Assembly: GCA_963662865.1 (NCBI GenBank)
Contig: OY759969.1
Span: 1,903,742 to 1,967,741 of the forward strand
DNA length: 64,000 nt
DNA from: Gammaproteobacteria bacterium
Lineage (GTDB): Bacteria; Pseudomonadota; Gammaproteobacteria; JAJDYQ01
Reading direction: 5' to 3'
Shown here: positions 2,768 to 64,000 of the stretch, piece after piece
Position numbering within the stretch: position 1 is the first letter of the stretch
Layout: every line of letters begins with the position of its first letter
Notes under the pieces: model-generated
The model's database searches: none
Told to the model about the DNA's origin: nothing
Seen by the model: only the letters and a program-made list of their open reading frames with translations
Program-made: the position numbers and the translations under genes

Positions 2768-2790
2768 GGGGGGGGGGGGGGGGGGGGGGG
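2768..2790. repeat. Homopolymeric G23 tract (C23 on coding strand), 13 nt upstream of the giant adhesin start codon
   Basis: Directly visible: cccatttg(g)23cattaaattg. Minus strand reads TTTAATG-C23-AAATGGGGTATTT-ATG. Confidence 0.95.
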
Positions 2791-37293: not shown

Positions 37294-37405
37294 AACAAAG
37301 TGAAATAAGCTCTATCTTATTTTACTTTTAATCAACAAAGTGAAATAAGCTCTATCTTATTTTACTTTTAATCAACAAAGTGAAATAATAATTTCTATAT
37401 TTCAC
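37294..37405. repeat. 40-bp tandem repeat (2 full copies plus a diverged third) carrying three GTGAAATA sites at 40/39-bp spacing. It ends in an inverted repeat GTGAAATA-N10-TATTTCAC 14 nt before the fic ATG
   Basis: AACAAAGTGAAATAAGCTCTATCTTATTTTACTTTTAATC appears twice, then AACAAAGTGAAATAATAATTTCTATATTTCAC. Confidence 0.9.
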
Positions 37406-37418
37406 TTTTTGAACATAC

Positions 37419-38561
37419 ATGGCCATTAAGTTAGAAAAATATCGGTCCGGGAAATTTCTTAAGGGAGCTCAGTATCAATTTTTCTTGCCTGCTCACATTA
37501 ATGAGAGTTGGAACTGGGATAGCCCACAAATCAATCAACTGGTTGAAAAAGCGGCAATCAGACTGGGAGAGCTGAATTCATATGCCCATCAGGTTCCCAA
37601 TATTGATCTTTTTATACAACTGCATGTCACCAAAGAGGCTGTGGTATCCAGCCGGATTGAAGGCACCAAAACCGATATAGACGAGGCGCTGCTGCCCGAG
37701 GAAGAAATCAATCCGCAGCGCCGAAACGACTGGAGAGAAGTCAAAAACTATATTCGGGCCATGAGCGAAGCCATACTGACGTTACGGGAGTTGCCATTAT
37801 CTTCGCGTTTATTAAAGCAGGCACACAGGGAACTACTCAGTAATGTTCGAGGGGAACACAAGTCTCCCGGTGAATTTCGCACCAGCCAGAACTGGATAGG
37901 TGGTATCAACCTGACGGATGCGGTATTCATTCCGCCCGAACATCAATATGTGCCCGAGTTGATGGGCGACCTGGAAAAATTTCTGCACAATACAGATATT
38001 CATATCCCGGAACTTATCCGTATTGCGATCGCACACTACCAGTTTGAAACCATACATCCCTTTCTGGATGGCAATGGAAGAATAGGCCGCCTGCTGATTA
38101 CTCTATTTCTCGTCAGCAAGGGTATCCTTGATCAGCCGTTGTTATACCTCTCCACATATTTTGAAAAAAACAGAGCCCTCTATTACGAAAATCTGATGAG
38201 AGTGCGGACACACAACGATATGTTGCAGTGGCTGAAATATTTTTTGTCTGGAGTGGAACAGACGGCTACCGAAGCCGTTAAGACACTGACCCGTATCATG
38301 GAGCTGAAAACCGGTATCGAACGTCAGATACATGGCGAGTTCGGAAGACGGGCCGCCAGTGCAACATTATTGCTGCAAGAGCTATTCAAACAACCCATAG
38401 TCAGTGTGGATCAGGTAGCAACATTCTGTAGTGTAAGCTATCGGCCAGCCAATAATCTGATTGCCCTGATGTGTGAGCACCGCATCCTCACGGAAATCAC
38501 CGGACAAAGCCGTAACAGGCTATTTGCATTTAAGCCCTATCTGGAAATTTTCAACATTTAA
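37419..38561 (+). CDS. fic: Fic family protein (class II AMPylase with internal inhibitory helix and C-terminal wHTH)
   Basis: Canonical HPFLDGNGRIGR Fic motif plus the inhibitory [ST]xxxE[GN] motif (SSRIEG). Low GC. Confidence 0.9.
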   Translation: MAIKLEKYRSGKFLKGAQYQFFLPAHINESWNWDSPQINQLVEKAAIRLGELNSYAHQVPNIDLFIQLHVTKEAVVSSRIEGTKTDIDEALLPEEEINPQRRNDWREVKNYIRAMSEAILTLRELPLSSRLLKQAHRELLSNVRGEHKSPGEFRTSQNWIGGINLTDAVFIPPEHQYVPELMGDLEKFLHNTDIHIPELIRIAIAHYQFETIHPFLDGNGRIGRLLITLFLVSKGILDQPLLYLSTYFEKNRALYYENLMRVRTHNDMLQWLKYFLSGVEQTATEAVKTLTRIMELKTGIERQIHGEFGRRAASATLLLQELFKQPIVSVDQVATFCSVSYRPANNLIALMCEHRILTEITGQSRNRLFAFKPYLEIFNI

Positions 38562-38779
38562 GGAAATTATGATTAAATCAGAGTTTCCTGCGATACAAGG
38601 ATGTATTGCCAAAAAGAATAACAAAAATCACATGGTTGTTTTCCGCGCTCTGACAAGTCCAGGATGGAGTTGTTCAGAGCTTCCTTAAGTACAGATAATC
38701 ACACCTGCCCGGCTATTTCAGCCAATGCCCTTGCGCCGGTGCTTCATCTTTCGATGCCTGTCGCCACAACCCTTCAAGA

Positions 38780-40135
38780 TCAGAACTGACGCACAAACCG
38801 CAACTCAAGACGGTTGCGGTCATAACCATACAACTGTGCATTTGAGTTGCGCCGCTCATTCACAAGCTGCAACTGCGGGCTGAAGCCATGCAGCGTGAAG
38901 GCGCGATTGGATGCCGAGAGGCGCACGATACGGGTGCGGTCCTCACGGGAAGAACCGTCTGTGAATGGAGACCAGTTGCCTTCGTATTCGGTACGGCGCA
39001 GCTCACCGCTTGCCCCCACCGTGAACCCCAGTGGCAGGGCCCGGGAAGCTCCCAGCCGCAGCCACAAGGCCCTGTTGCGCCATACCAGGGAATCAGGGCG
39101 CTCCCGCCCATAACCGAATGCGGCGTCGATGCGGGTTGTCGAGGTCGCCAGCCAGGAACCGCCCAGCGAGAACGCGGTGACCGGCCCATCCAGCCCTGTC
39201 CTGCGCTGATAACCGCGCCGATGCCAGGACAAGCGCATATAGGAGGTCAACCGGCGCGTCAGACGATGTTCGGCCTCCAGGCGCAGCCCATGTTCACGGC
39301 TGTGGGAGCGGCCGGCGAGCCAGCGGCGGCGCGTACCACCGAGCAGGCTGAACTCCGTTACCGGGCCTGCCAGCCAGCGTGGTCCGATCTGCGCCGATAC
39401 AAAGGTCTGATCAAAGTCCCTGCCGGCATATTCACGCCGGGCCAGATCGACACCGGTGCGCAGCCGCCAGCGTTCGCCCAGCGGATATTGATACTCGCCG
39501 CCGCCCCAGAACACCATCCCGATACCGGACTGCTCATCCGAGCTGTCATCGAGGCGAAACGGCAGGCCGCCGATCTCAATGACCTCTTCACCGGAGGAGG
39601 CGTTCAGGTTGCTGTCGGGGGCCAGTGAGATGCCAAAGTAGCTGCTCCAGCGGCGCCGCTCGCGGATCGCGTTCAGGAAACGATGGACATTAGACGCGAC
39701 CGCGGCCCCGGGTCGGCCGGCCAGCACGCGCTCGAACTGCCGCTGCGCCAACTCGTCCTCACCCTTCAGGAAAAGTGCCTGCGCCAGCTCCAACCTGACC
39801 CGCACCAGTTCAGGCCGGTCAATCAGGATGGTGTGATAGGCCGTGATTGCCTCATCCAGCAGGGCATCCCCGGCGTCCGCCTCGATATCCGGCTGCCGGG
39901 ATGCGCGGGACGCCGCCAGACCGAGCAGGAACAGCACATCGGTCTGGTCTGCATGGTCGGCTGCCAGCGGACGCAGGATCGACAATGCCTCGTCAAAGCG
40001 CCTGTCTTTAATCAGGGTCCGCGCCTGATTGACCTGGGGGTCGGATGACAGATGTTCACGGCCTTCCGCAGCCAGGGCAGTGGACGGATACAGCAGCGCC
40101 AGGGCGATCAGCACACCGGCCAGCGGCTTGGTCAT
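38780..40135 (-). CDS. Slam-like outer-membrane protein (surface lipoprotein assembly modifier, TPR N-domain plus DUF560 beta-barrel)
   Basis: 451 aa. Signal peptide, TPR-like periplasmic region, and a C-terminal amphipathic beta-strand region ending ..LELRFVRQF (terminal Phe). Lies adjacent to a TbpB-like lipoprotein gene. Confidence 0.6.
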   Translation of the reverse strand: MTKPLAGVLIALALLYPSTALAAEGREHLSSDPQVNQARTLIKDRRFDEALSILRPLAADHADQTDVLFLLGLAASRASRQPDIEADAGDALLDEAITAYHTILIDRPELVRVRLELAQALFLKGEDELAQRQFERVLAGRPGAAVASNVHRFLNAIRERRRWSSYFGISLAPDSNLNASSGEEVIEIGGLPFRLDDSSDEQSGIGMVFWGGGEYQYPLGERWRLRTGVDLARREYAGRDFDQTFVSAQIGPRWLAGPVTEFSLLGGTRRRWLAGRSHSREHGLRLEAEHRLTRRLTSYMRLSWHRRGYQRRTGLDGPVTAFSLGGSWLATSTTRIDAAFGYGRERPDSLVWRNRALWLRLGASRALPLGFTVGASGELRRTEYEGNWSPFTDGSSREDRTRIVRLSASNRAFTLHGFSPQLQLVNERRNSNAQLYGYDRNRLELRFVRQF

Positions 40136-40196
40136 GGAGAATATACGCGATAGACGGGGCGGCCAGCCGCCCCGCCTTTATACGAACAGGTAGAGA

Positions 40197-41594
40197 TTAC
40201 TGTCTGTGTGCACCGAAGGCACCCAGCAGGCTGGCGCTATCATCAGCAGCCCCCGCACCGAATGTCCCGGCCACTGAACCTGGATGATCGGTGGCGCTGT
40301 CGCCATTACTATAGAATTGACCGCCCCATCGGCCGGTGAAGGCGCTGCCGTCAAACGTCATGCTGGTAGCGCCAGTGAAGAATCCGGAGCCTGCACTACC
40401 GATATTGGCCGTCCCCAGCGTTAATACCGGATCCCCGGTAACAGCGTTACCGTCCTCCGTGACAGTATGGATCCGTCCATTAATGGTGCCAAGGGCAGAA
40501 CTATTACCAAAATTAGCCGTCAGCGTGGCAAGGGCATCGACGTAACGGATCTCCGATACGTCGGTATATACGCCGGTTGCCACTCCGTCGTAGGTTGCCG
40601 TGCCGGTCAGCCCGGCGATATTGGCCTGCGTGAACGGGTCACTGCCATCCGCAAAGGCACCAACCGTGACATCGCTAGCGCTCTCCGCGTCGTTGGGAAT
40701 GTACAACCAGATCCCGCCCGCTAGATAGTCGGTGTCTGGAGTGGTCCTGACTATTGTGGCAGGGACGAAAATCCAGTTGCCTGTAAGTGAACTCAATCTC
40801 CCGTTGCTTGTGCCACGTCCGCATAAGTCGCTTAGGCATCTGAAATATCCACTCTGACCATTGTACGTGCCAACGGTTCGATCCGTATCAAACCGCCCGG
40901 TAAACACTACACCGGAAACTCCGGAAATGTCGGTCGAGCCTGGCGGCCGGTCAGGCGTGAACATCCATGCCCCGGCGGTCGTTCGACCATTGACATACGC
41001 GCACGAAGCGGCGCAGGAAAATGTGCCTGATTGACCGTCTAGCGTACCTCCGAAACTCGTAGAACCGCCAACGCTTAACGATACCCCACTAGTGGCAACC
41101 AACGTTCCCGCAGAGACGTCTACGGTGCCGTCGTTGCCAGCCCCCAGCTGCTGCTCAGGCGCTTCGATATCGGAATAGATATCGACATATAAGTCACCGT
41201 CGTCGCCATCAAAGCGCAACCCGGAACCCTTGAACCCTAAGTCCCTGGCGTTTTCTACTATTGGGTATGAGGTATTAAGAGCGGCGTCGGACGACCCGAA
41301 GCTAATGGTGCTGTCATCTTCATCAGTTACAGTTATCATGTAGCTGTTCTGGCGCTCTCCGTACGTCACTGTTATGTCTACAGCATCAGTCGTGACACCA
41401 CTATTAACGTTTGACGACTGCGTGACAGAACCACGGTTGGGCGTTGCACTGGCAGCCACTGATGATCGCTCCATCCTATACTCCTGCTCAGCCTCAGTCA
41501 GGTTGTCAAGCGGACGTACTACACCGCTGCCACCACCGCCACCACCGCCACCGCCACCACAGCCGGACAGCGCGAGCGCCGCGACTGTAATCAT
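40197..41594 (-). CDS. Surface lipoprotein with TbpB/fHbp-type C-terminal beta-barrel handle (putative Slam substrate)
   Basis: ATG at 41594 gives MITVAALALSGC (lipobox). This is followed by an 11-Gly linker and a beta-rich body ending ..SLLGAFGAHRQ (TbpB-like C-terminal motif). The ORF-track start at 41828 is a TTG inside or upstream of the repeat and is not favoured. Confidence 0.55.
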   Translation of the reverse strand: MITVAALALSGCGGGGGGGGGGSGVVRPLDNLTEAEQEYRMERSSVAASATPNRGSVTQSSNVNSGVTTDAVDITVTYGERQNSYMITVTDEDDSTISFGSSDAALNTSYPIVENARDLGFKGSGLRFDGDDGDLYVDIYSDIEAPEQQLGAGNDGTVDVSAGTLVATSGVSLSVGGSTSFGGTLDGQSGTFSCAASCAYVNGRTTAGAWMFTPDRPPGSTDISGVSGVVFTGRFDTDRTVGTYNGQSGYFRCLSDLCGRGTSNGRLSSLTGNWIFVPATIVRTTPDTDYLAGGIWLYIPNDAESASDVTVGAFADGSDPFTQANIAGLTGTATYDGVATGVYTDVSEIRYVDALATLTANFGNSSALGTINGRIHTVTEDGNAVTGDPVLTLGTANIGSAGSGFFTGATSMTFDGSAFTGRWGGQFYSNGDSATDHPGSVAGTFGAGAADDSASLLGAFGAHRQ

Positions 41595-41599
41595 CGCTA

Positions 41600-41869
41600 T
41601 TACGATGTTATAATATTGCTGATTGCTGATTGCTGATTGCTGATTGCTGATTGCTGATTGCTGATTGCTGATTGCTGATTGCTGATTGCTGATTGCTGAT
41701 TGCTGATTGCTGATTGCTGATTGCTGATTGCTGATTGCTGATTGCTGATTGCTGATTGCTGATTGCTGATTGCTGATTGCTGATTGCTGATTGCTGATTG
41801 CATTATCTTGTTCCCCCTTAGGCTCCAAGCTAAAATATACATAAATATCAGGCTGAGAAAATTCCGCAT
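41600..41869 (-). CDS. Leader ORF reading through the heptanucleotide repeat. Hydrophobic N-terminus MRNFLSLIFMYILAWSLRG followed by (SAISNQQ)n
   Basis: ATG-initiated. It stops 5 nt before the lipoprotein ATG with 26 repeat copies, and would fuse in-frame with 27 copies. Confidence 0.25.
   Translation of the reverse strand: MRNFLSLIFMYILAWSLRGNKIMQSAISNQQSAISNQQSAISNQQSAISNQQSAISNQQSAISNQQSAISNQQSAISNQQSAISNIITS
41617..41798. repeat. Perfect heptanucleotide SSR, 26 x TGCTGAT (ATCAGCA on the coding strand)
   Basis: Directly visible. 182 bp (not a multiple of 3), with no stop codon in any frame. Confidence 0.97.
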
Positions 41870-42031
41870 CGGCCTGCCTTGTGCTGCTATTGTTGAACAG
41901 TGTAGCGCACTCCTAACAGAATACCCATAAAAAATTCAGGAACCACATTGATTCGCGCACATGAAACAGGCCCACTGGCTGGTTGGTGCAAAAACGTAAG
42001 GAATTCTGAGCCGGTCAGGGCTTCCTTGCCG

Positions 42032-43093
42032 CTATCGCTCGTCCAACCAGTCACCAATCGCAGGTGGTATGCTCCTCTGTGCCTTGCCGCTGACATAGAT
42101 GCCGATATGACCGCCCGGGAATGACAGCTCGGTATAGTCCTTACTGCCGATTTTCTTTTTCAGCGCCTTGCTTGCGCCCGGTGGCACCAGATGGTCCTGT
42201 TCGGCATAGATATTCAGTACCGGCATTCGGATGTTTTTCAGTTTAACCTGCGTATCCCCGATAACCACTTCGTCACTCATCAGCTTGTTACCCTGGAAAA
42301 AGTCCTTGATAAACTGACGATAGGCCTCTCCGGCCTGGTCCGGGCTGTCGAATATCCACTTTTCCATACGCATGAAGTTCTTCAGCGCATCCGGGTTATC
42401 CATCAGGTCAACAACGCCCAGATATTTCTGCCCCATCAGCGCATAGGGCTTCAGGTTCAGGAACGTCCAGTTCAACAGGTCACCGGGGATATTGCCACAG
42501 GTATCCACCAGCAGGTCGATATCGACATTCTGCACCCAGTGGCTCAGCATATTGTCTTTGGTATGGAAATCAACCGGTGTCACCATGGTAATGAGATTTC
42601 TTATTTTTTCAGAGGACATGGCGCTGTAACATAAGCTGAAGGTACCGCCCTGACAGATACCGAGCAGGTTGATTTTCTCGACATCATGTCGGCCTCTGAG
42701 CACATCAACACAGTCATCAATGTAGCCGTTAATGTAATCATCCAGGTCCAGGTAACGATCACCTGCGTCGGGATAGCCCCAGTCAATCAGATAGACATCC
42801 TGACCTGCATCCAGCAATCCTCTGATAAGAGAACGGCCTTCCTGCAAATCCGCCATGTAAGGACGATTAACCAGCGCATAGACGATTAATAACGGCGTCT
42901 TGCCGGTCGCCTTGTTTTCAGACTGATAGCGATAAAGCACCAGCCTGTCGTCGCGGTAAATCTCCTCACGGGGCGTTACCCCGGATGAAATTTCACCTGT
43001 TTCCATCAGGCTGTGTACGCCTTTGGCAAATTTTTCATTGAACTGACGGACTTCGTTTAATATGTCCTGCGGTTTGATATTGATTGGATTCAT
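42032..43093 (-). CDS. phaC: Class III poly(R)-hydroxyalkanoate synthase subunit PhaC
   Basis: 353 aa. Lipase box GICQGG and near-collinearity with Allochromatium-type PhaC (..LIVYALVNRPYM..GQDVYLIDWGYPD..). Confidence 0.9.
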   Translation of the reverse strand: MNPINIKPQDILNEVRQFNEKFAKGVHSLMETGEISSGVTPREEIYRDDRLVLYRYQSENKATGKTPLLIVYALVNRPYMADLQEGRSLIRGLLDAGQDVYLIDWGYPDAGDRYLDLDDYINGYIDDCVDVLRGRHDVEKINLLGICQGGTFSLCYSAMSSEKIRNLITMVTPVDFHTKDNMLSHWVQNVDIDLLVDTCGNIPGDLLNWTFLNLKPYALMGQKYLGVVDLMDNPDALKNFMRMEKWIFDSPDQAGEAYRQFIKDFFQGNKLMSDEVVIGDTQVKLKNIRMPVLNIYAEQDHLVPPGASKALKKKIGSKDYTELSFPGGHIGIYVSGKAQRSIPPAIGDWLDER

Positions 43094-43114: not shown

Positions 43115-44431
43115 TTAATCGTTATCGCCCAGCATGGCCCTGGCCTGCTTGACCCATTGCTCTCGTGTAATCTTACCGGTTACATTGATCGCCTTTTCCA
43201 GGTCTTCAACAGACTGCTGACTCATGGTCGCCAACTGTTCCATCGCGGTGATGCCCTGTTCATAAAGCCGTTCCTGCACCCTGGGCCCGATACCCTTGAT
43301 CCGTGTCAGATCATCTTTTTGCGTGGAAACCTTTTTTGATACGGCCTTCTCTCTGGCTTTCGGTGGCTTTTTGGCTCCTGCTTTCTCTAATTGGTCCATA
43401 CGACCGCTCAATATGGCGAACTGCCTTCGCAGTTGACGGTTCTCGCGACGTGCCTGCTGTAGCTTTCTGGATACTGCCTCCAGGTCCGTTCGTGTCGGCA
43501 GATTCATTGCCTGATACACGTCTTCCATCAACTCACCGGAAGCCCGCTGAACGGCCATCAGACTATTCACCAAATCTCCATATACCACCTGATACTCGTC
43601 GCTCATGGCAAATCTGCCATAGACATCTTCGTTTACATCAATCCAGAAATCATACAGTCCACGCATTGAGTCAATCGGCTGTTCCAGTTCGCCAAATCTC
43701 TTTTTCGTCGCCTTGATTGATCGGATGCCCAGCCCGGCAAAGGCAATCTTATAAGCCTTGAGGGCCTCTCCATATTTGACAAGGAGTTCCACAAGCCGCT
43801 GCACCTTCGCCTGTTTTTCACGGCCATACCCCAGGGCCGGCATACCCAGCATTTTATCAAGTTGCTCGCGGGTCCTGCCTGTTTCAGGAAACATCGCCGC
43901 ACTGAAACCGGGAAAATCCCAATCCTGGGGCGCCAGACCGCGCATCATGGAGCCAGCCATATCCTGCCAGGATTTCATCGCCATACGCTCGAAGCCAAAG
44001 ATTTCTGGCATATCAATATTAAGACCGGACTTGAGCTGCTGCTTCCATTGTTTGAAACCGGCCTGCATCGTATCCAGCCAACTGTTGACCAGCTCTTCAT
44101 TGGCATCGCTGTTTCCCGAACCGGCATTGTGAAAGGCCTCGGCCATCCTCAGATAGCTTTTTCCCATCTCAGCTGTGCGCTCCATGAAATCTTTTGCCGG
44201 TTCAGGTGCCTTCGGAGAGAACATCTGCCGCCATCTGTTAAAGGCATCAATAAACGATTCCGGCCAGGACTGGCCCATACCGGGAACAGTATTTGCGGAA
44301 AAGGATGCGAAAGGATTGCCCGCTGCAGAATTTGATTGCATCTGGTGCATCCAGTTTTGCCAGTAATCCTGTTGTGCCTTTACCCAGGCCTGACTGCCCT
44401 GCTCAAACCAGTCGGTGTTCGATGAAGCCAT
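43115..44431 (-). CDS. phaE: Class III PHA synthase subunit PhaE (with C-terminal HhH-like extension)
   Basis: Lies immediately upstream of phaC in the same orientation. Start chosen at MASSNTDWF with AGGAGA RBS. The longer ORF start at 44506 overlaps the promoter palindrome. Confidence 0.7.
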   Translation of the reverse strand: MASSNTDWFEQGSQAWVKAQQDYWQNWMHQMQSNSAAGNPFASFSANTVPGMGQSWPESFIDAFNRWRQMFSPKAPEPAKDFMERTAEMGKSYLRMAEAFHNAGSGNSDANEELVNSWLDTMQAGFKQWKQQLKSGLNIDMPEIFGFERMAMKSWQDMAGSMMRGLAPQDWDFPGFSAAMFPETGRTREQLDKMLGMPALGYGREKQAKVQRLVELLVKYGEALKAYKIAFAGLGIRSIKATKKRFGELEQPIDSMRGLYDFWIDVNEDVYGRFAMSDEYQVVYGDLVNSLMAVQRASGELMEDVYQAMNLPTRTDLEAVSRKLQQARRENRQLRRQFAILSGRMDQLEKAGAKKPPKAREKAVSKKVSTQKDDLTRIKGIGPRVQERLYEQGITAMEQLATMSQQSVEDLEKAINVTGKITREQWVKQARAMLGDND

Positions 44432-44490
44432 TGCTGAATTCTCCTGAATAAACCCTGTATTCATGTTGATTTCAGGTAGTCTAATGAGTA

Positions 44491-44510
44491 TATTGCTGCA
44501 ATGCAATAAT
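44491..44510. promoter_or_regulatory. Candidate PhaR operator in the phaE/phaA divergent promoter region
   Basis: TATTGCTGCAATGCAATAAT carries TTGC..GCAA-type dyad elements shared with the phaP and phaR upstream regions. Confidence 0.3.
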
Positions 44511-54640: not shown

Positions 54641-57600
54641 CTACCAGTGCAGCTTCCACTGTGCGCCGATGCCGTGGTTGGTTTTGCCTTCACCGTCCCG
54701 GCGGCGCAGGGCCTTGATGTCCAGCTCCGTGTCCGGGCCGCCCGGTGCCGACAGCAGGCGCCAACCCACGGTCAGATCGCGCCCGGAACCTGAAGATGTG
54801 CCGGACGACGACAGGCCCGCATATGGAATGCCGGTGGCGCCGTCACTCAGGGCCAGGCCCCACTCGCCCTCCAGGCTCCAACGACCGGAGGCCGAACCGG
54901 GCTGTGAGGAATCACCCTCCAGCGCCTCCGATAACGAATCCGACAACAACCGGTCCAGGCCGCCAGAAGCCGCGGCGGTGCCGTACTCCTGACGCACACT
55001 CAGCGACGGGCCGTAGGCCGTGTCCGGTTGCAGCTCGTAGCGCAGCGAACCCGATACGCCCCACTCTCGCCGCTCGGCGGCATCATGATCCAGCAGACGC
55101 CGACCGCGCACATCCACCGTCAAGCCCCTCGACGGCAACTCCCAACTGATACCGCCGCCCAGTTCCACTCCCACTCCGTCGCTGCTATCGCCGCCGTCAT
55201 AGCGCATCCCCAGCTCCAGTTCCGGTACCAGGCGACCGCCGTCCGCCTGCGGCATCTGCCACGACCACTCCAGGCCCAGACGCAGCCGCTGCGTGTCTGC
55301 CGTCAGGCCCGCTACGCCCCCGTCATCGTCATTCGATTCAATCCGCGCCAGCGTCGCATCCGAGGTCAGCTCCAGCTTCAGACCGCCTGCCTCCACCGGC
55401 CGCTCCAGCAGCGTGCCGCGCAGCCCCACCGAGGCCGATAGCTGATTAATGTCATGCCTCGAATCAGCCGATGTCGAACTCTGCTCCAGGTTGCCAAGGC
55501 CATAACTCGCCGCCGCCCATAACTGCAATCTCTCGGTGACGTTGTGTCGGATATACGGCAGCAGCGACGCCAGCGTGCTCGACAATTCGCCCTGGGCACT
55601 CGCTCCACTCCAGTCTCCAGTGCCTTCGCTGTATGACAGCGCCAGACCCAGCAGCGTCCGTCCGTTGTCGCTGTCCACTCCCAGCAGGCCGGTCGTCACC
55701 TCGCCATCCACCGTGACCCCCTCGCGGGCATCTTCGTAGCGCGAGTACGACGCCTGACCCCACACCGAAACACCGTCCTGATCGGTGTACACGAAACGGC
55801 TGCCGCTCAGCATATCGCGCAGCGACAGCGTCCTTGACAGGTTCAACAAGCGGTCAACCGAACCGGCCCCCAGGCCATCGCCATGGCCGGCGCCCTGACC
55901 GAAGCCGTCCGCACCCAGACCCGATACATCACCGATTCCATGATCGACCCCAGGCAGTGCACGACCAGAGGACAGACCGCTCACATTGCCCGACAGCCCC
56001 GGCGCACGATCCGTCAACGAAAAACGCGCATCCAGGCCGCCCAGCATATGTTCTAACGCCATCAGTCCGAAGCGCGGCAGCCAGGTCTCCTGCGCCGCCT
56101 GCATCTGCGATGTCTCGGTCTCTCCGTCCGTCACCGTGACAACCACCGATTCCGGACTCAGGCCGTCCGTCGGGTAGCGGCCACCGTCGCCGTTGCTGAT
56201 GCGGTGGCCGATGCTCGCCGTGCGTGCTCCTCCGGGGTGGTCTATGTCGTCAACCACCCCGGTCACCGTCACGACCTGGGCCGTGTTCCAGTTAACCGTC
56301 GTGAACGTCAGCGTCGACGGGCCTGCCGTCGCCGCCGTCGGCGTGTCGGAGGTCACCGTCAGCTGCACCGGTGCGCCCGGCTGCGAGTCCAGCACTACCG
56401 TGTAACTCGCCGTGCCGCCATTCTCATTGACCGTCGCGACATCAACGCTGATCGTCACTCCCGGGGCCGCATCGTCGTCCGTCACCGTGACAACCACCGA
56501 TTCCGGACTCAGGCCGTCCGTCGGATAACCGCCACCGTCTCCGACGCTGATGCGGTGGCCGATGCTCGCCGTGCGCCGATTGCCGGGGTTGTTGATGTTG
56601 TCGTCCACTCCGGTCACCGTCACTCTCTGAGCCGTGTCCCAGTTAACCGTCGTGAACGTCAGGCTCGCCGGGCTGACCATGGCCGCAATCGGCATCGTCG
56701 AGGTCGTGGTAATCTCGACATCGCCCGCCGGCTGCGAGGCCAGCTCCACCGTGTAGCTCGCCGTGCCGCCATTCTCATTGACCGTCGCGACATCAACGCT
56801 GATCATCACTCCCGGGGCCGCATCGTCGTCCGTCACCGTGACAACCACCGATTCCGGACTCAGGCCGTCCGTCGGATAACCGCCACCGTCGCCGTTGCTG
56901 ATGCGGTGGCCGATGCTCGCCGTGCGCCGATTGTCGGGGTTGTTGATGTTGTCGTCCACTCCGGTCACCGTCACTCTCTGAGCCGTGTCCCAGTTAGCCG
57001 TCGTGAACGTCAGGCTCGCCGGGCTGACCATGGCCGCAATCGGCATCGTCGAGGTCGTGGTAATCTCGACATCGCCCGCCGGCTGCGAGGCCAGCTCCAC
57101 CGTGTAACTCGCCATGCCGCCATTCTCATTGACCGTGAAATCCTCCATCGCGCTGATCATCACTGCCGGGGCCGCGTCGTCGTCAAGCACCGCAACCACC
57201 ACCGCCGTCAGGCTCAGGCTCGTCGGATAACCGACGCCGTCTCCGACGCGGATGCCGTGGCTGATCCTCGTCCGGCGCCGGTCGCGCGGCGAATTGTCGA
57301 GGCGGTCGTCAACTCCTCTCACCGTCACCGTCTGCTCCGTGTCCCAGTTACCCACCGTGAACGTCAGAACCGCCGGGCTCGCCGTCGCCGCCGTCGGTAA
57401 ATCAGAGCTCACCGCAATCTCTACAGCCCCCGCCGGCGGCGTGGTCAGCACCACCGTGTAGCTCGCCGTGCCGCCGTCCTCGGCACCATTCTCGTTGACC
57501 GTCACTCCGGTCTCGCTGAAACGCACACCGGCTTCGTCGTCGTCCACTACCGTCACGGCAAGCGATTCCAGCGTCAGGCCGTCCGTCGGGTAGCTGTTGC

Positions 57601-60600
57601 CGTCTCCACGGCTGATGCGGTGGCTCAGGCTTACCCTGCGTTCGCCTCCGGCATTGTCTATGCGGTCGTCAACTCCTCTCACCGTCACTTCCTGGGCCGT
57701 ATTCCAGTTGCCCATCGTAAAGGTCAGGCCCGTCGGACTCACCGTCGCCGCCGTCTGATCCGAGCTCGCAATCATGAGCTCCACATTACCCGACGGTTGG
57801 GTCGACAGTTCTACCGTGTAGGTGTCCGTGCTGCCGTTCTCGACTATGCGGGTCGCTCCTGCCGTCTCAACCAGGGTCACGCCCGCCATGTCGGGGTCGG
57901 TGATCGTGACCGGCAGCTGCGCCGTCACTCCGTCATAACCATCGCCCGTGGCACTCGCCGTGTGTGTCAGACGGGCCGTGTCATCCACGGCGTCCACGTC
58001 GGTATCGGCCGTCACCGTGATCGTCTGTACCGCGCTCCAGTTGGCCGACGTGAACGTCAGGCCGCTCGGCGTCGGGCTCAGGTCGGTGCCGCTGTGACCC
58101 GTCACCGCAATGGCCACATTGACCATCGGCCGGGTCGCCAGTGATACCGCGTAACCCACGGCGCTGCCGCCCTCGGTGACCGTCAGGCTCGCCGGCATCA
58201 GCACGATGGTCGGCTCCTCCATGATGACGAAGTCCGCCAGATTGTCGGTGCCCCTGGCGCCGCCGCCCAGGTTGGTGCCGGTGGTCGTACCCAGGGGGCC
58301 CAGGTCGATGTCGATGGTCTCGTTGGCGTCGGTGATGATGTCGGTCAGTATCCGCAGCGTCAGCGTGGCCGCGCTTACGGACGGGCCGCTAAACGTCACC
58401 GTGCCGGCGCCGCCGCTGTCCGGGATGTCGTAGGCGATGTTGTTCGCCGGGGTGCCGGTCAGGGTGTAGTCCGTGCCCCGCTCCGCGGTGCCGCCCAGGG
58501 TCAGCGGCACCGCCAGGCTCTCGCCGCTGATCAGGCCGCGGTTCAGGGTCACGCTCAGGGCGCTGGTGGCCCCCTCGTTGAGATTGCCGCCCGCTCCCGA
58601 CAACGTCACGACGGTGGCATCGTCGTCATTGACCGCGACCATCGCCACCGGCGAGGGGCCGACCATGTAGCCGTCGCCATCCGCCACGGTCACCGTGAGC
58701 GTGCCGCTGGCCTCGTCTGTGACGTCGGCCTGCGTGGCGACTTCGTAGGTCACCGTGGTGGCACCGCTCGCCAGGGTCACCGTGGCCTCGCCCTCGGCGC
58801 CTGAATCCACAAAATTACCCGCCGCGGCGTCTGTCACTGCCACTGTAATCGACAGCTCTGCACCCGGTGCCCGGCTGGCCGTCAACGTGAAGGTCGCCGA
58901 GCTGCCCTCGGTGACCGCGGCGCCGCCGGTGATGTCAATCACCACCGGTTCTTCAATGGTGAAGTCCGCCAGGCTGTCCGTACCGCTGGCTCCGCCGCCC
59001 AGGTTGGTGCCGGAGTCGCCGTCCAGGGTACCCAGGTCGATGTCCACCGTCTCGCCGCCGCCCTCGTCCACGCTATCGACCGTCGCGCTCAGCGTCAGCG
59101 TGGCCACGGTCGCCGTCATGCCCGTGAGGGGGCCGGTAAATGTCACGGTACCGGCGGCGCCGTTCAGGCCGGTGTAGCTGACTCCGCTCGCCGCGCGGCC
59201 GGTTATGCTGTAGTCCGTGCCCGGTGTCGCCGCGCCGCCAAAACTCAGCGGCACCGCCAGTACCTCGCCCGCCACCAGGGCACGGCCCAGGGTCACGGTG
59301 ATGGTTTTGGCATCGCCTTCCGTCAGGTTGCCCGCCGCGCCCGCCAGGGTCACCGGGGTGGCGTCGTCGTCGCTCACCGTCGCCGTCACCGAAGCAACCG
59401 CAAGGCCGCTGTAATTAGAATCCGTCGAGGTCGCCGCGTGGCTGATGATCACCGTCCGGTCGGACGCGTCGGCATCGTTATTGACCCCGGTGACCGTCAC
59501 CGTCTGTGCCGTGTCCCAGTTGCTGTCGCTAAAGATCAGGCCAGCCGCCGGACTCACCGTGGCGAGGCTCGCCATGCCCGAGGTCGCCACAACGGTCACG
59601 TCGCTGGTCGGTTGGCGGTTCAGCACCATCGTGTAGCGGGCCGAACCGGTCTCCGTGAGCGTGGTGGCACCGTTCGGCTCGACGAGGGTCACCCCCGGCG
59701 GCGTATCGTCGTTGAGCACCGTGTAGCTGACGCTGGCGGCGCCTGGCGCTATGGCCACGTCTTCGGGCGTGGTGCCGACCCGATCCACGGTGACGATGAC
59801 CGTCTCGTCGTCTTCGTCCACCGCATCGCCGCTGACCCGGATCTTATAGGCCACGCTGGCCTGATCGGCCGCAAAGCTCAGCTCAAGGGCGCCCGTGATT
59901 TCGCTATTGTCGGCTTGAGTGAATCGATAGTCGCTGCCGCGAGTGGCGGTGCCGCTCAGTTCCAGGCTCAGCGCAAAGCCCTGCGGGCGCGGCGGCGTCA
60001 CCGTCACCGTCACTGTCGCCCCGTCGCTCAGGCCCGTATCGCCCTCGGCACCCATGGCCGGGTCGATCGCGACCGACACGATGTGGCTGGCGGCGTCAAC
60101 CACTTCCACATCAAAGCCGTTGGCGCTGCCGTGCGGGTCGGCTCCGCCGCCAACATTGGTGCCCAGGCTGGTGTGATCAAAGCCATTGGTGCCATCGCCG
60201 TTCGCGCCCAGCTCGATGCGATAGGTCTCGGTGCCCTCGTCAATGTTGTCCGCCTCCGGGCTCAGTTCCAGGGTGGCGGTCTCCGCTCCCTCTGCAAAAC
60301 TCAGCAACGGGGTCGCCGTGGCTTCGTTTGTCAGGCTCACGCCGCTGCCGGCGGCGGCCAGGCTCCAGTCGGCTGTGGTCACATTCGTGCCGCCGATCGA
60401 CAGCGGCACGTCGATGATCTCGCCGGCGCTCAGTGCCCGACCCAGGGTGATGGTGAAACCCACCGTGCCGCCTTCGTCAACGGCACCCGTGGTGCCCGTG
60501 CGCATCAGGCTGACGACCGTCGGTTCGTCGTCTCTCACCGTCGCCGTCACCGAGTCAACCATAATGTCGTTGTAATCGGCGTCCGTCGAGGTCGCGGCAT

Positions 60601-63600
60601 GGGTGATGGAACTCTGCCGGTCGACGGCGTCGGTACTGTCATCCGCCCCGGTGACCGTGACCGTCTGCACGGCCTCCCAGTTGGCCGGCGTGAACGTCAG
60701 CCGGGGCGGGCTCACCGTGGCCGCACTGGTCGTACCCGAGGTCGGCACGATGACCACATCGGCGGACGGTTGGGTGTCCAGCTCCACCGTGTAGGTGTCC
60801 GTGCCGCCGTCCGCACTGCCGTCCTCAACGACCGTGGTGCCTCCCTGCGTCTCGGTGAGGGTCACGCCTGCCTCGTCGTCGTCGCTCACCGTCACGGTGA
60901 CCGGGGCCGGGCTCAGGCCGTTGGTCGGATAGCTGCGGCTGTCGCCGGTGCTGATGTGGTGGCTGAGGCTCGCCGTGCGTTCACCGCCGGCGTTGACCCG
61001 ATTGTCGTTGATACCCGTCACCGTCACCGTCTGCGCCGTGTTCCAGTTGGCCGTCGTGAATGTCAGGGTCATCGGGCTCACCGTGGCCGCACTGGTCGTA
61101 TCGGAGGTCACCGTGATCTCGACTGCGCTCGCCGGTTGCGTGGCCAGTACCACGGTGTAGGTGTCCGTGCCGCCATCCGCGCTGCCTTGCTCAATCACCG
61201 TGGTGTCGTCTTGCGTCTCGGTGAGGGTCACGCCCGCCTCGTCTTCGTCGCGGGTGTTGACCGTGATCTGTGCCGTCACGGTGTCGTAGTTGCCGCCGGT
61301 GGCCGTGTGCATCAGCGTCGCCGTGTCATCGTCGGCGTCGGCGTCGGTGCCCGCCGTCACCGTGAAGCTCTGTATCGTATTCCAGTTGGTCGCCGTAAAT
61401 GTCAGGGCGTCCGGGCTCAGGGTCAGCTCGGTGCCGGCTTGACCCGTCACTGCAATCGTGACATCGATCGTCGGGAGCACGGCCAGGGACACCGCATAGT
61501 TGGCGCTGGCGCCTTCTGTGATCGCCAGGGTCGGCAGCAGCACGATGGCCGGGTCCTGCATGATGGTGTAGTCCAGGCTGCCCGTGCCGATAAGCGCGCC
61601 GCCCAGGGGGCCGCCCGGCCCGCTGCCGGTCGGGGTGCCCGGGGCGATGGTGATGGTCTCGCCGGCGTCGTCGGCGTCGTCGGTCTGCACGGCCAGGGTC
61701 AGCGTGGCAATGGCCGGGGCCGGGCCGGTAAATGTCACCGTACCGGCGGGGCCGCTGTCCGGGATGGTGTAGGCGATGCCGTCCGCATCGGTGCCGGTCA
61801 GGGTGTAGTCCGTGCCCCGTGTCGCGGTGCCGCCCAGGGTCAGCGGCACGGCCAGGCTTTCGCCGGCGGCCAACGGGCGGTTCACGGTGACCGTGAGGTT
61901 GCGGGTGACGCCTTCGTTGATGTCAGCCGCCGTGCCCGCCAGGGTCACCGTGGTGGCGTCGTCGTCGCTCACTCCGACCATGGCCGAGGACGGCATACCA
62001 ACGGTGTAACCGGTGCCGTCCGCTATGGTCATCGTGATCAGGCCGTTGGTCTCGTCGATGGCGTCGGCCTGTGTGGGGATTTCAAGGGTGGCTGTGGTGG
62101 TGCCGGACAGGGTCACCATGCGCTCGCCTTCGTCGCCTGCATCCAGATAATCACCGGCGGCGGCGTCCGCGACGGTCAGAGTAATGTCCAGGTCGCTGCT
62201 CGGGACCCGGTCGGCGGTCACCGTGAAGGTCACGGAACTGCCCTCGGTGACCGCGGCGCCGCCGGTGATGGTGAGAATCGACGGGTCTTCGATGGTGAAG
62301 ATATTCAAGATGTCTGCGTCGAATGCGCCGCCGCCCAGGTTGGTGCCGGAGTCGCGGCCCAGGGTGCCCAGGTCAATGTCCACCGTCTCGCCAGCGGCCT
62401 CAACCTCGTTGTCGAGGGTCGCGGTCAGGGTCAGTCTGGTCCTGTCCGCGGACGGACCGGTAAAGGTCACCGTGCCTGCGGCGCTGTTCAGGCCGCTGTA
62501 GGCGATGCCCATCGCCGCGGGGCCGGTGACGGTGTAGTCCGTGCCCGGTGTCGCCTCACCCATGAAGGTCAGCGGCACCGCCAGGCTCTCGCCGGCGATC
62601 AGGGGGCGGGTCAGGGCGACGGTGAAGACTTTGCTGGCACCTTCCGTGATATTGCCTGCGGTGCTCGACGACAAGGCCACCGCGGTCATGTCGTCGTCAC
62701 GCACCTGTACCGTGGCCGCGGGCGGTGTGTCGACCGTGTAACCGGTGCCGTCCGCGATGGTCGCCGTGATCAGGCCGTTGGGTTCGTCGATGCGGTCGGC
62801 CTGCGTGGCGATTTGAACGGTGGTCATGGTGGTGCCGCCGGGCAGGTTGACCATGCGGGCGCCTTCATCGCCTGAGTCCAGATAATCACCCGGGGCGGCG
62901 GCGTCTGCGACGGTCAGCATGATCGGCAGGTCGGTCGCCTGGGCGCGGCTGGCCGTCACCGTGAAGGTCGCCGCGCTGCCTTCGGTGACCGCGGGGCCGC
63001 CGGTGATGCCGATGACCGGCGGCGGGCCGCCGATGTTGAAGTCCGCCAGGTTGTCGGTGCCGCTCGCGCCGCCGCCCAGGTCGGTGCCGGAGTTGCTGTT
63101 CAGCGTGCCCAGGCCGATGATGACCGACTCGCCGCTGGCCTCAACATCGCTGTCGGCGGTCGCGCTCAGGGTCAGGGTGGTGCTGGCGGCCGATGGGCCG
63201 GTGAAGGTCACCGTGCCGGCGGCGCTGCCCAGGCCGCTGTAGGTGACGCCGCTCGCCGTGGCGCCGGTGACGGTGTAGTCCGTGCCCGGGGTCGCCTCAC
63301 CCATGAAGGTCAGCGGCACTGCCAGCGCCTCGCCGGCGGCCAGGGCACGGCCCAGGGTGACGGTGAATGCCTTGTCGGCGCCTTCCATGATGTCGCCCGC
63401 GGCGCCCGCCAGGGTCACCGTGGTGGCGTCGTTGTCGATGATGAACAGCGTGTGGGTCGAGGTGGAGCCCGGCGTATAGTCCGAGCCTATTGTAGTCAGG
63501 GTCAGTGCGGCCGACTCCCTGATCTCGTCCAGGCTGTCATCAATAATGGTCACCGGAATGCTGACGCTGCTGGTGTTCGCGGTGACCGATATGCGGCGGC

Positions 63601-64000
63601 CGGGGACGCTGTAGTCACCGTTCTCAGTCGCACTATGGGCGGTACTTACGTAAGTGATCATCATATCCGCGGTCGGTGCCGGCATGAGATTGAACACCAC
63701 ATTGTGTGTGCCGACGCCTTCGTCTGCCGCCGATGATGCCAGGGCGAAGGATATCAAACTGACATCGCCCACCATGACGTCGAAGGTATTGTCGCTGGGG
63801 TGCGGGTCGGCGCCGCCGCCGACATTGGTGGCCCGGCTGGCGTGGTCAAAGCCGTTGGCGCTGTTGTCGTTCGGGCCCAGCGCGATGGTGTAGGTCTCGG
63901 TGCCGGTGCCCTCGGTGGTGACGTCACGCGCCGTGGTCAGCACCAGGGTGGCGGTCTCGGATCCCTCCCCTGCAAAGCTCAGCAACGGGGTGGCCGTGCC
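54641..64000 (-). CDS. Giant type Va autotransporter adhesin (N-terminus beyond window end). More than 20 tandem Calx-beta/Ig-like ~115-aa repeats plus a C-terminal autotransporter beta-barrel
   Basis: 3114 aa are open in the window. Many repeats of the type ..TVTVTG(V)DD.. / ..SATVSDDD... The C-terminal ~450 aa is Gly/Ser-rich with alternating amphipathic strands and ends ..IGAQWKLHW (terminal aromatic), typical of an AT translocator. All long plus-strand ORFs across this span are R/G/P-rich antisense shadows. Confidence 0.85.
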   Translation of the reverse strand, partial: GTATPLLSFAGEGSETATLVLTTARDVTTEGTGTETYTIALGPNDNSANGFDHASRATNVGGGADPHPSDNTFDVMVGDVSLISFALASSAADEGVGTHNVVFNLMPAPTADMMITYVSTAHSATENGDYSVPGRRISVTANTSSVSIPVTIIDDSLDEIRESAALTLTTIGSDYTPGSTSTHTLFIIDNDATTVTLAGAAGDIMEGADKAFTVTLGRALAAGEALAVPLTFMGEATPGTDYTVTGATASGVTYSGLGSAAGTVTFTGPSAASTTLTLSATADSDVEASGESVIIGLGTLNSNSGTDLGGGASGTDNLADFNIGGPPPVIGITGGPAVTEGSAATFTVTASRAQATDLPIMLTVADAAAPGDYLDSGDEGARMVNLPGGTTMTTVQIATQADRIDEPNGLITATIADGTGYTVDTPPAATVQVRDDDMTAVALSSSTAGNITEGASKVFTVALTRPLIAGESLAVPLTFMGEATPGTDYTVTGPAAMGIAYSGLNSAAGTVTFTGPSADRTRLTLTATLDNEVEAAGETVDIDLGTLGRDSGTNLGGGAFDADILNIFTIEDPSILTITGGAAVTEGSSVTFTVTADRVPSSDLDITLTVADAAAGDYLDAGDEGERMVTLSGTTTATLEIPTQADAIDETNGLITMTIADGTGYTVGMPSSAMVGVSDDDATTVTLAGTAADINEGVTRNLTVTVNRPLAAGESLAVPLTLGGTATRGTDYTLTGTDADGIAYTIPDSGPAGTVTFTGPAPAIATLTLAVQTDDADDAGETITIAPGTPTGSGPGGPLGGALIGTGSLDYTIMQDPAIVLLPTLAITEGASANYAVSLAVLPTIDVTIAVTGQAGTELTLSPDALTFTATNWNTIQSFTVTAGTDADADDDTATLMHTATGGNYDTVTAQITVNTRDEDEAGVTLTETQDDTTVIEQGSADGGTDTYTVVLATQPASAVEITVTSDTTSAATVSPMTLTFTTANWNTAQTVTVTGINDNRVNAGGERTASLSHHISTGDSRSYPTNGLSPAPVTVTVSDDDEAGVTLTETQGGTTVVEDGSADGGTDTYTVELDTQPSADVVIVPTSGTTSAATVSPPRLTFTPANWEAVQTVTVTGADDSTDAVDRQSSITHAATSTDADYNDIMVDSVTATVRDDEPTVVSLMRTGTTGAVDEGGTVGFTITLGRALSAGEIIDVPLSIGGTNVTTADWSLAAAGSGVSLTNEATATPLLSFAEGAETATLELSPEADNIDEGTETYRIELGANGDGTNGFDHTSLGTNVGGGADPHGSANGFDVEVVDAASHIVSVAIDPAMGAEGDTGLSDGATVTVTVTPPRPQGFALSLELSGTATRGSDYRFTQADNSEITGALELSFAADQASVAYKIRVSGDAVDEDDETVIVTVDRVGTTPEDVAIAPGAASVSYTVLNDDTPPGVTLVEPNGATTLTETGSARYTMVLNRQPTSDVTVVATSGMASLATVSPAAGLIFSDSNWDTAQTVTVTGVNNDADASDRTVIISHAATSTDSNYSGLAVASVTATVSDDDATPVTLAGAAGNLTEGDAKTITVTLGRALVAGEVLAVPLSFGGAATPGTDYSITGRAASGVSYTGLNGAAGTVTFTGPLTGMTATVATLTLSATVDSVDEGGGETVDIDLGTLDGDSGTNLGGGASGTDSLADFTIEEPVVIDITGGAAVTEGSSATFTLTASRAPGAELSITVAVTDAAAGNFVDSGAEGEATVTLASGATTVTYEVATQADVTDEASGTLTVTVADGDGYMVGPSPVAMVAVNDDDATVVTLSGAGGNLNEGATSALSVTLNRGLISGESLAVPLTLGGTAERGTDYTLTGTPANNIAYDIPDSGGAGTVTFSGPSVSAATLTLRILTDIITDANETIDIDLGPLGTTTGTNLGGGARGTDNLADFVIMEEPTIVLMPASLTVTEGGSAVGYAVSLATRPMVNVAIAVTGHSGTDLSPTPSGLTFTSANWSAVQTITVTADTDVDAVDDTARLTHTASATGDGYDGVTAQLPVTITDPDMAGVTLVETAGATRIVENGSTDTYTVELSTQPSGNVELMIASSDQTAATVSPTGLTFTMGNWNTAQEVTVRGVDDRIDNAGGERRVSLSHRISRGDGNSYPTDGLTLESLAVTVVDDDEAGVRFSETGVTVNENGAEDGGTASYTVVLTTPPAGAVEIAVSSDLPTAATASPAVLTFTVGNWDTEQTVTVRGVDDRLDNSPRDRRRTRISHGIRVGDGVGYPTSLSLTAVVVAVLDDDAAPAVMISAMEDFTVNENGGMASYTVELASQPAGDVEITTTSTMPIAAMVSPASLTFTTANWDTAQRVTVTGVDDNINNPDNRRTASIGHRISNGDGGGYPTDGLSPESVVVTVTDDDAAPGVMISVDVATVNENGGTASYTVELASQPAGDVEITTTSTMPIAAMVSPASLTFTTVNWDTAQRVTVTGVDDNINNPGNRRTASIGHRISVGDGGGYPTDGLSPESVVVTVTDDDAAPGVTISVDVATVNENGGTASYTVVLDSQPGAPVQLTVTSDTPTAATAGPSTLTFTTVNWNTAQVVTVTGVVDDIDHPGGARTASIGHRISNGDGGRYPTDGLSPESVVVTVTDGETETSQMQAAQETWLPRFGLMALEHMLGGLDARFSLTDRAPGLSGNVSGLSSGRALPGVDHGIGDVSGLGADGFGQGAGHGDGLGAGSVDRLLNLSRTLSLRDMLSGSRFVYTDQDGVSVWGQASYSRYEDAREGVTVDGEVTTGLLGVDSDNGRTLLGLALSYSEGTGDWSGASAQGELSSTLASLLPYIRHNVTERLQLWAAASYGLGNLEQSSTSADSRHDINQLSASVGLRGTLLERPVEAGGLKLELTSDATLARIESNDDDGGVAGLTADTQRLRLGLEWSWQMPQADGGRLVPELELGMRYDGGDSSDGVGVELGGGISWELPSRGLTVDVRGRRLLDHDAAERREWGVSGSLRYELQPDTAYGPSLSVRQEYGTAAASGGLDRLLSDSLSEALEGDSSQPGSASGRWSLEGEWGLALSDGATGIPYAGLSSSGTSSGSGRDLTVGWRLLSAPGGPDTELDIKALRRRDGEGKTNHGIGAQWKLHW

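Follow-up and report, generated by a model that had tools for sequence, protein, structure and literature searches.

A heptanucleotide array at the 5' end of a Slam-type surface-lipoprotein gene is a probable translational phase-variation switch

What does a long and perfect array of a seven-nucleotide repeat do at the 5' end of a gene for a surface lipoprotein? The question is raised by a 64,000-nt stretch of contig OY759969.1 (positions 1,903,742 to 1,967,741; assembly GCA_963662865.1) of a gammaproteobacterium of lineage JAJDYQ01, hereafter called the window. On its minus strand, the array precedes a lipoprotein gene and a gene for Slam, an outer-membrane protein of type 11 secretion. We suggest that the array is probably a switch for translational phase variation of a surface-lipoprotein gene that was acquired horizontally and whose product depends on Slam. 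The type of switch is already known, neuO of Escherichia coli being one example; its gene family and lineage are new.

The array and its reading frames

Tandem Repeats Finder detects a single 7-bp array at the locus (table 1), with a unit length that is not a multiple of three. On the gene strand, the array is (GCAATCA)26 plus GCAAT, followed by ATTATAAC, and its first base is the G of an ATG codon. Read along the minus strand, TAAGGGGGAACAAGATA-ATG is followed by the array, ATTATAACATCGTAATAGCG, and the annotated start codon of the lipoprotein gene, ATG 41594 (start codons are named by their first base), which is 21 nt downstream of the 3' end of the array. The gene strand has no stop codon within the array in any of the three frames, each of which translates as SAISNQQ, and the plus strand, (ATTGCTG)n, has a TGA in every frame. 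The perfection of 26.7 uninterrupted copies is what is expected of an actively slipping tract and was counted in favor of a switch. A search with the two-unit 14-mer, allowing up to two mismatches, yields 28 matches in the window versus 0.65 expected, a number reached in none of 100 shuffles; the 25 exact matches are all inside the array, and no other such heptamer array is present in the 64 kb. A first-pass annotation of the window had reported 26 perfect copies, free of stops and encoding the same heptapeptide in all three frames. Tandem Repeats Finder confirms that this array is real and has no mismatches, the coordinates are correct, and the description of the frames holds for the gene strand.

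The annotated ATG 41594 has no Shine-Dalgarno (SD) sequence and leaves 11 residues (MITVAALALSG) ahead of the lipobox cysteine. In 31 lipobox homologues, this distance is 20–28 residues (median of 22), and the n-region has a lysine or arginine in 29 of the 31. All homologue loci that were inspected have a GAAGGAG or GAGGAG SD sequence located 6–9 nt ahead of the ATG, and the only comparable site in the window is the AAGGGGG that precedes ATG 41803. Residues NIVIA, encoded in-frame immediately before Met 41594, bring the hydrophobic core to the length that is usual for the family, and between the array and ATG 41594, the lipoprotein frame alone is open. Because an SD sequence is 9 nt upstream of ATG 41803, and because ATG 41594 lacks one and yields a signal peptide that is truncated relative to those of the 31 homologues, ATG 41803 is probably the true start. 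The array would then be a repeat of the 5' coding region and specify the n-region of the signal peptide.

The first-pass annotation had instead started a leader open reading frame (ORF) at position 41869 and considered its hydrophobic N-terminus similar to a signal peptide. This interpretation is not upheld: MRNFLSLIFMYILAW results from translating an AT-rich stretch that resembles a promoter, and ATG 41803 is the likelier start. A second, upstream hydrophobic segment would also be expected to misorient the topology needed for lipobox processing. The exact sequences of the 89-amino acid (aa) leader ORF, and of the 67- and 543-aa ORFs described below, have no match in a collection of 15 billion proteins.

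Alleles of 20–32 copies were generated in silico and translated from ATG 41803. When the number of copies is a multiple of three (21, 24, 27, and 30), ATG 41803 is fused to the whole lipoprotein, and no other number has this result. Numbers that leave a remainder of two end at the TAA at 41602-41600, with a 67-aa peptide at the sequenced 26, and those that leave a remainder of one (25 and 28) halt at the TAA at 41610-41608. Across these alleles, adding or losing single units switches the product between full-length and truncated. The simulations agree with what had been claimed for the leader frame, namely that it stops at a TAA 5 nt before ATG 41594 in the sequenced state, is fused to the lipoprotein with 27 copies, and enters the third frame with 25. 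With 26 copies, the lipoprotein frame is itself open through the entire array to TTG 41828, forming an ORF of 543 aa.

In the mechanism that we propose, the array is a hypermutable simple-sequence repeat (SSR) in the 5' coding region that would function as a translational on/off switch. Translation would start at ATG 41803 and read the array as (QSAISNQ)n. With full units in a multiple of three (24, 27, or 30), the ribosome would proceed into ...QYYNIVIAMITVAALALSGC, with the hydrophobic core of the signal peptide and the lipobox, and from there into the 465-aa TbpB-like protein. Gain or loss of one unit by slipped-strand mispairing would place the ribosome in one of two dead-end frames. The repeat peptide is upstream of the lipobox cysteine and is predicted to be cleaved with the signal peptide, so copy number would set expression or frame and not the mature sequence. 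The sequenced allele of 26 units is predicted to be in an OFF frame, one that ends 5 nt before ATG 41594, with residual expression amounting at most to weak reinitiation or to weak initiation at TTG 41828. The layout of the locus and its frame arithmetic, the shortened signal peptide and absent SD sequence at the annotated start, the fold, the linkage to Slam, and the differing lengths of analogous arrays in homologous cassettes are established; we infer that ATG 41803 is used, that slippage occurs at this locus, and that the signal peptide functions despite its long, polar n-region.

Table 1. Features of the array, the lipoprotein–Slam cassette, and their surroundings (positions in the window)
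Feature	Position	Strand	Basis and remarks
Perfect heptanucleotide array	41615..41801	-	Tandem Repeats Finder: period 7, 26.7 copies, 100% matches, no indels, score 374
ATG, probable true start	41801..41803	-	Third base is the first array base; suggested by SD sequence and by signal-peptide length of homologues
SD-like AAGGGGG	41813..41819	-	9 nt upstream of ATG 41803; read from the sequence
TTG, possible weak alternative start	41826..41828	-	In the lipoprotein frame at 26 copies; no SD sequence
Extended -10-like TGTATATTT, candidate	41833..41841	-	Found by eye, upstream of the array; absent from consensus-scan output
TAA	41600..41602	-	Ends frames from ATG 41803 and ATG 41869 at 3k+2 copies (as sequenced); 5 nt before ATG 41594
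TAA	41608..41610	-	Ends frame from ATG 41803 at 3k+1 copies
Leader ORF of the first-pass annotation, 89 aa, ATG-started	41600..41869	-	From the ORF list; translation likely only from ATG 41803
Surface-lipoprotein gene, annotated as 465 aa (P0001)	40197..41594	-	Lipobox LSGC, Cys codon 41559-41561; Gly-rich linker, TbpB-like handle, 8-stranded barrel
Slam / type 11 secretion outer-membrane protein gene	38780..40135	-	PF04575 (1e-25), PF24575; TPR N-terminal domain and DUF560 barrel
Insert of ~3.5 kb: array, lipoprotein gene, and Slam gene	38537..42031	-	Not present in a related genome, where the Fic-gene region follows phaC

The lipoprotein–Slam cassette and its relatives

The lipobox of the protein, LALSGC, is followed by a poly-Gly linker and aligns with the lipoboxes of the 31 homologues; ∼500 homologues of the lipoprotein were found. 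The protein has no significant match in Pfam, and a profile search of Protein Data Bank (PDB) sequences is also without a match. An AlphaFold2 model built on 38 sequences has a pLDDT of 85.1. Its best PDB matches in Foldseek, at a probability of 1.00, are TbpB, HpuA, the C-domain of NHBA (TMt of 0.65), and fHbp, all of which are known Slam-dependent surface lipoproteins (PMC5449769). According to the model, the protein is a TbpB/HpuA-like lipoprotein. The earlier assignment to the Slam-type surface lipoproteins is corroborated by the lipobox, the PF04575 gene downstream, and the fold matches. Surface proteins of this class, TbpB/HpuA-like and associated with Slam, are known for phase variation, and the identity of the protein was therefore counted toward a switch.

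The location of the cassette is consistent with horizontal acquisition. On the minus strand, phaE (43115-44506) and phaC (42032-43093) are followed by a 437-bp gap with the array inside it, then by the lipoprotein gene and, 61 nt downstream of the latter, the Slam gene. A related genome, with a PhaC that belongs to the same 90% cluster, has the region of the Fic gene 44 bp after phaC, so the sequence at 38537-42031 of the window is a 3.5-kb insert. The guanine–cytosine (GC) content of the Slam gene is 0.64 versus 0.46–0.50 in the flanks. The lipoprotein and Slam ORFs are both intact and full-length relative to their homologues, and the two genes are paired in six of nine distinct homologue loci that were examined. 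The first-pass annotation had presumed a nonpathogenic sulfur oxidizer; Pfam searches of ten other ORFs of the window identified housekeeping genes only and no sulfur-oxidation markers, and an Rfam scan of the window found no family. Just upstream of the Fic/DOC gene (37419-38561, plus strand) is a perfect 40-bp tandem repeat of 2.4 copies (37294-37388), located in an AT-rich stretch (GC of 0.40).

Repeats are also found in the closest cassettes. The lipoprotein of the window is a singleton cluster with a next homologue that is 53% identical, and exact lookups of it and of the Slam protein found no second copy of the locus in the collections searched. The closest cassettes (loci L001, L002, L125, and L126) adjoin integrase, IS21, and TrwC relaxase genes. 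At one orthologous site, (GCCCAGC)n is present in 3.1 copies in L002 (3676-3697), 7.4 in L125 (2130-2181), and 30.1 in L126 (1979-2189). These arrays directly follow a TTGACA...TGATACAAT box and are ∼310 bp upstream of the ATG of the homologous lipoprotein gene; between L002 and L126, the sequence around them has an identity of 96% on the upstream side and 85% on the downstream side. At the equivalent place in L001 (3641-3736) is a perfect non-triplet array of a 13-mer, (CTCTTCACGGGGC)7.4. The heptamer of the closest cassettes is unrelated to the unit in the window, and as their copy numbers show, arrays in the cassette family are hypervariable. Repeat counts thus differ among relatives at the orthologous GCCCAGC site, and the window locus itself is represented by one allele. 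The non-triplet arrays of these cassettes were counted in favor of a switch.

A different gene in a relative has the same layout as the one described here. In locus L127, from a genome with a homologue of the lipoprotein (P0019), a perfect octanucleotide array, (ATCGCCGG)26.8, is located at 30-243 on the minus strand, directly after the SD-preceded ATG (gene start 245) of a gene for a 2195-aa LapA/Calx-beta protein. The order of SD sequence, ATG, and array is shared with the window, and we count this in favor of a switch. Metagenome homologues of the lipoprotein are mostly from Mediterranean sponges (MKWU, LXNI, and LXNJ), which suggests that the lipoprotein family is associated with hosts. 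The association with arrays is that of the closest clade and not of the whole family.

Two further ideas on the relatives were rejected. One is that a leader ORF is conserved. Long ORFs do extend through the GCCCAGC arrays of L002 and L126, but the frame is shifted in L125, and several frames are open in this GC-rich DNA, all ending at a TGA inside the CTGAAGGAG SD sequence. The other concerns the origin of the array. In L001, a hexamer, (CGCAAT)3, at 4024-4041 is in the signal-peptide coding region of P0002, where it encodes AIAIA; it and the CAGCAAT of the window are one base per unit apart. A derivation of the array from the CAGCAATG start region or from the (CGCAAT)3 of relatives was rejected because local alignments of the upstream and post-array sequences of the window to four relatives are no better than those of shuffles.

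The window has other repeats associated with large proteins. A homopolymer of 23 cytosines (2768-2790, minus strand) is 13 nt upstream of the ATG at 2754-2752 and is immediately followed by an SD-like GGGG. The protein linked to this C23 tract is large (>918 aa) and secreted, has a signal peptide ending in ...LLAALASEAAAQ and repeated domains, runs off the start of the window, and has no match in Pfam. C23 is the second long, perfect tract within these 64 kb to be located at the 5' end of a gene whose product is secreted or at the surface, and was counted in favor of a switch. Separately, an ORF of 3114 aa (54641-63985, minus strand) has a 351-bp repeat of 3.8 copies with 85% identity (56125-57475) and presumably encodes a giant repetitive surface protein.

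Competing explanations and significance

Several observations weigh against a translational switch. The locus is represented by a single sequenced allele, the nearest homologue of its product being 53% identical, and the exact count (26 versus 27) is uncertain if the assembly rests on error-prone long reads. The sequenced state is OFF under the model, and a decaying gene would look alike. The fused pre-protein would have a polar n-region of 60–70 residues that lacks lysine and arginine, an atypical Sec/lipoprotein signal that might not direct export. A consensus scan of 41400-42200 found no sigma-70 promoter. Among relatives, loci L127, L156, L157, L158, and L159 have no upstream non-triplet array, and the 5' repeats of 28 metagenome loci are almost all in-frame repeats of the Gly linker, with essentially no non-triplet arrays. 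The arrays of the closest relatives are ∼310 bp upstream and next to a promoter-like box, and may act on transcription or the leader instead of frame. Lastly, the identical heptamer forms long arrays in plainly intergenic sites of unrelated bacteria.

One alternative follows from the arrays of the relatives. If ATG 41594 is the start, as annotation pipelines chose for the 465-aa protein, the array would be in the promoter or the 5' untranslated region and, in the manner of hmw1A/2A and uspA2, would modulate transcription or the 5' leader, with copy number grading mRNA level, leader length, or stability rather than frame. The arrays of the closest cassettes are located right after a promoter-like box, and upstream arrays, with a heptamer, octamer, or nonamer as the unit depending on the strain, modulate hmw1A/2A (PMC2651432). 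We nevertheless consider this rather unlikely, because ATG 41594 is without an SD sequence and its pre-cysteine peptide is half the family minimum, the array abuts an ATG that has one, and no sigma-70 consensus is present on either side of the array. The scan also found no terminator in the same interval. The candidate -10-like TGTATATTT upstream of the array would put the start of transcription just upstream of the SD sequence. As the first-pass annotation noted, another -10-like element, TATTATAAC, is directly 3' of the array, but its suggestion that copy number could alter promoter geometry is weak: any -35 element for this TATAAC would fall within the periodic array, leaving the spacing constant whatever the copy number.

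Another alternative, to which we give about the same low weight, is that a neutral or mildly harmful microsatellite expanded in the 5' part of a gene gained by horizontal transfer, inactivating or crippling it, with no adaptive switch involved. In the sequenced state, the SD-preceded ATG is not in frame with the lipoprotein, and the cassette is a recent insert. Moreover, a scan of a genome collection for three or more copies of AATCAGC found at least 120 stretches across many phyla; of 127 arrays listed, 63 fall between genes or in short ORFs, and the others are inside longer ORFs or at their ends. In Acinetobacter sp. ANC 4633, for example, 23.6 copies of the identical heptamer (L113, 1131-1295) are intergenic, between a terminator-like hairpin and tRNA genes. 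AATCAGC is a generic microsatellite and not a conserved motif, the same microsatellite expands independently in unrelated genomes, and its position is what counts. For most prokaryotic genomes, heptamers are reported to be the most abundant class of long SSRs (Mrazek 2007, as cited in PMC4679880). The view of the first-pass annotation that heptanucleotide repeats are unusual is contradicted by this citation, as well as by neuO (PMC3046976) and hmw1A/2A (PMC2651432). A neutral expansion, however, would make coincidences of the exact placement of the array at an ATG and of the open lipoprotein frame that follows it. Neither the lipoprotein ORF nor the Slam ORF is disrupted or shortened relative to homologues, non-triplet arrays have arisen independently on the 5' side of related cassettes, and the layout of SD sequence, ATG, and array recurs on the adhesin gene of L127.

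Two other explanations are very improbable. Because the array ends 21 nt before ATG 41594, and TAACTGA sets of marine Beggiatoaceae are located a few nt upstream of starts (PMC4679880), the array could be a repeated RNA-binding platform in the 5' leader for a post-transcriptional regulator. The unit differs, though, and 26.7 copies far exceed the 2–6 per TAACTGA set; the array has no stops in gene orientation, whereas TAACTGA stops all frames, and the 64 kb have one array and no Rfam family. It is just as hard to credit that the array is an assembly artefact or that its length is misestimated. Long, perfect arrays are indeed sized poorly by short reads or noisy long reads, but this one is flanked by unique sequence within a 2.57-Mb contig, and comparable arrays are present in independent assemblies of relatives.

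A translational switch thus remains the explanation that we favor. From the original interpretation of the locus as encoding a phase-variable surface antigen, we retain the frame-shifting array and the Slam-type lipoprotein, and discard the leader start at 41869, the rarity of heptamers, and the -10 geometry. A broader proposal, more speculative and on present evidence doubtful, is that lipoprotein–Slam cassettes make up a family of mobile contingency loci in marine bacteria, most of them associated with sponges. In this proposal, AATCAGC, GCCCAGC, and the 13-mer would be unrelated non-triplet repeats that have arisen repeatedly on the 5' side, and the n-region would be variable yet cleavable. 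The switch could have three states, these being a fused ON state, a state in which a stop 5 nt before the internal ATG permits coupled weak expression, and OFF. Together with the octamer array on the adhesin gene of a relative, the C23 tract would point to an unrecognized "phasome" in nonpathogenic symbionts.

What is known of repeat-driven phase variation comes almost wholly from pathogens of humans and animals. In the window, the same design is predicted for a TbpB-like, Slam-exported lipoprotein of an environmental or symbiotic gammaproteobacterium, with sister cassettes, apparently from sponge-type microbiomes, that have length-variable arrays of their own. If confirmed, stochastic switching of surface antigens would extend to the cargo of type 11 secretion outside pathogens, and selection by phage, predators, or host recognition would be indicated. 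It would also caution annotators, as the called start at ATG 41594 and the label "hypothetical protein" would be masking a switchable gene. Counts of repeat alleles in long-read metagenomes could score the locus directly.

Comparison with known systems

Alternative starts are a feature of lic1A of Haemophilus influenzae, in which start codons in two frames upstream of a 5' (CAAT)n repeat result in strong, weak, and off states. They resemble the pair of ATG 41803 and TTG 41828, although the unit of lic1A is a tetranucleotide. In Opa genes, a non-triplet CTCTT repeat is within the signal-peptide coding region, as is predicted for the window array, but the Opa repeats encode hydrophobic residues of the leader and those of the window encode polar residues. 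Also in Neisseria, hpuA is phase variable via a poly-G tract (PMC3786947). HpuA is a Slam-dependent, TbpB-like lipoprotein with an ORF-internal repeat switch and is among the best structural matches of the window lipoprotein. Both systems differ in that the tracts are a homopolymer (hpuA) and a pentamer (Opa) rather than a heptamer, and in that Neisseria are obligate human colonizers.

Two systems have heptamers that function, or are proposed to function, by other means. In Haemophilus influenzae, (TGAAAGA)13-38 is upstream of the adhesin genes hmw1A and hmw2A, and strains use a heptamer, octamer, or nonamer (PMC2651432). The presence of different arrays at the same locus is comparable to GCCCAGC, the 13-mer, and AATCAGC across members of the cassette family, but hmw arrays affect transcription and not frame. 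Direct repeats of TAACTGA in marine Beggiatoaceae, Cyanobacteria, and Bacteroidetes are likewise heptamer tandem repeats near start codons, with sulfur bacteria among their hosts and regulator binding as their proposed role (PMC4679880). They have 2–6 copies per set, many sets per genome, and stops in all frames, and would bind a regulator rather than slip. The window, in contrast, has AATCAGC as its unit, no stop in gene orientation, and a single array in 64 kb.

The closest mechanism, by analogy, is that of neuO, which encodes the polysialate O-acetyltransferase of prophage CUS-3 in E. coli K1 and has (AAGACTC)2-93 directly after its start codon (PMC3046976). Its poly-psi variable-number tandem repeat is ON only at multiples of three, with three units encoding one heptad, and has been called a "mobile contingency locus" (PMC3046976). 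The differences are in the product and in what is established. NeuO is cytoplasmic and its heptads are kept in the mature enzyme, where they tune activity, whereas the heptads of the window would belong to the signal peptide of a lipoprotein, in its n-region, and be cleaved. The unit, protein family, and lineage also differ, and variation and phenotype, which are predictions for the window, are established for neuO. The two nonetheless share a heptamer right after the start (in the window, the probable one), tens of perfect copies, no stop on the reading strand, an ON state (predicted for the window) at multiples of three, three units per heptad, and residence in horizontally acquired DNA.

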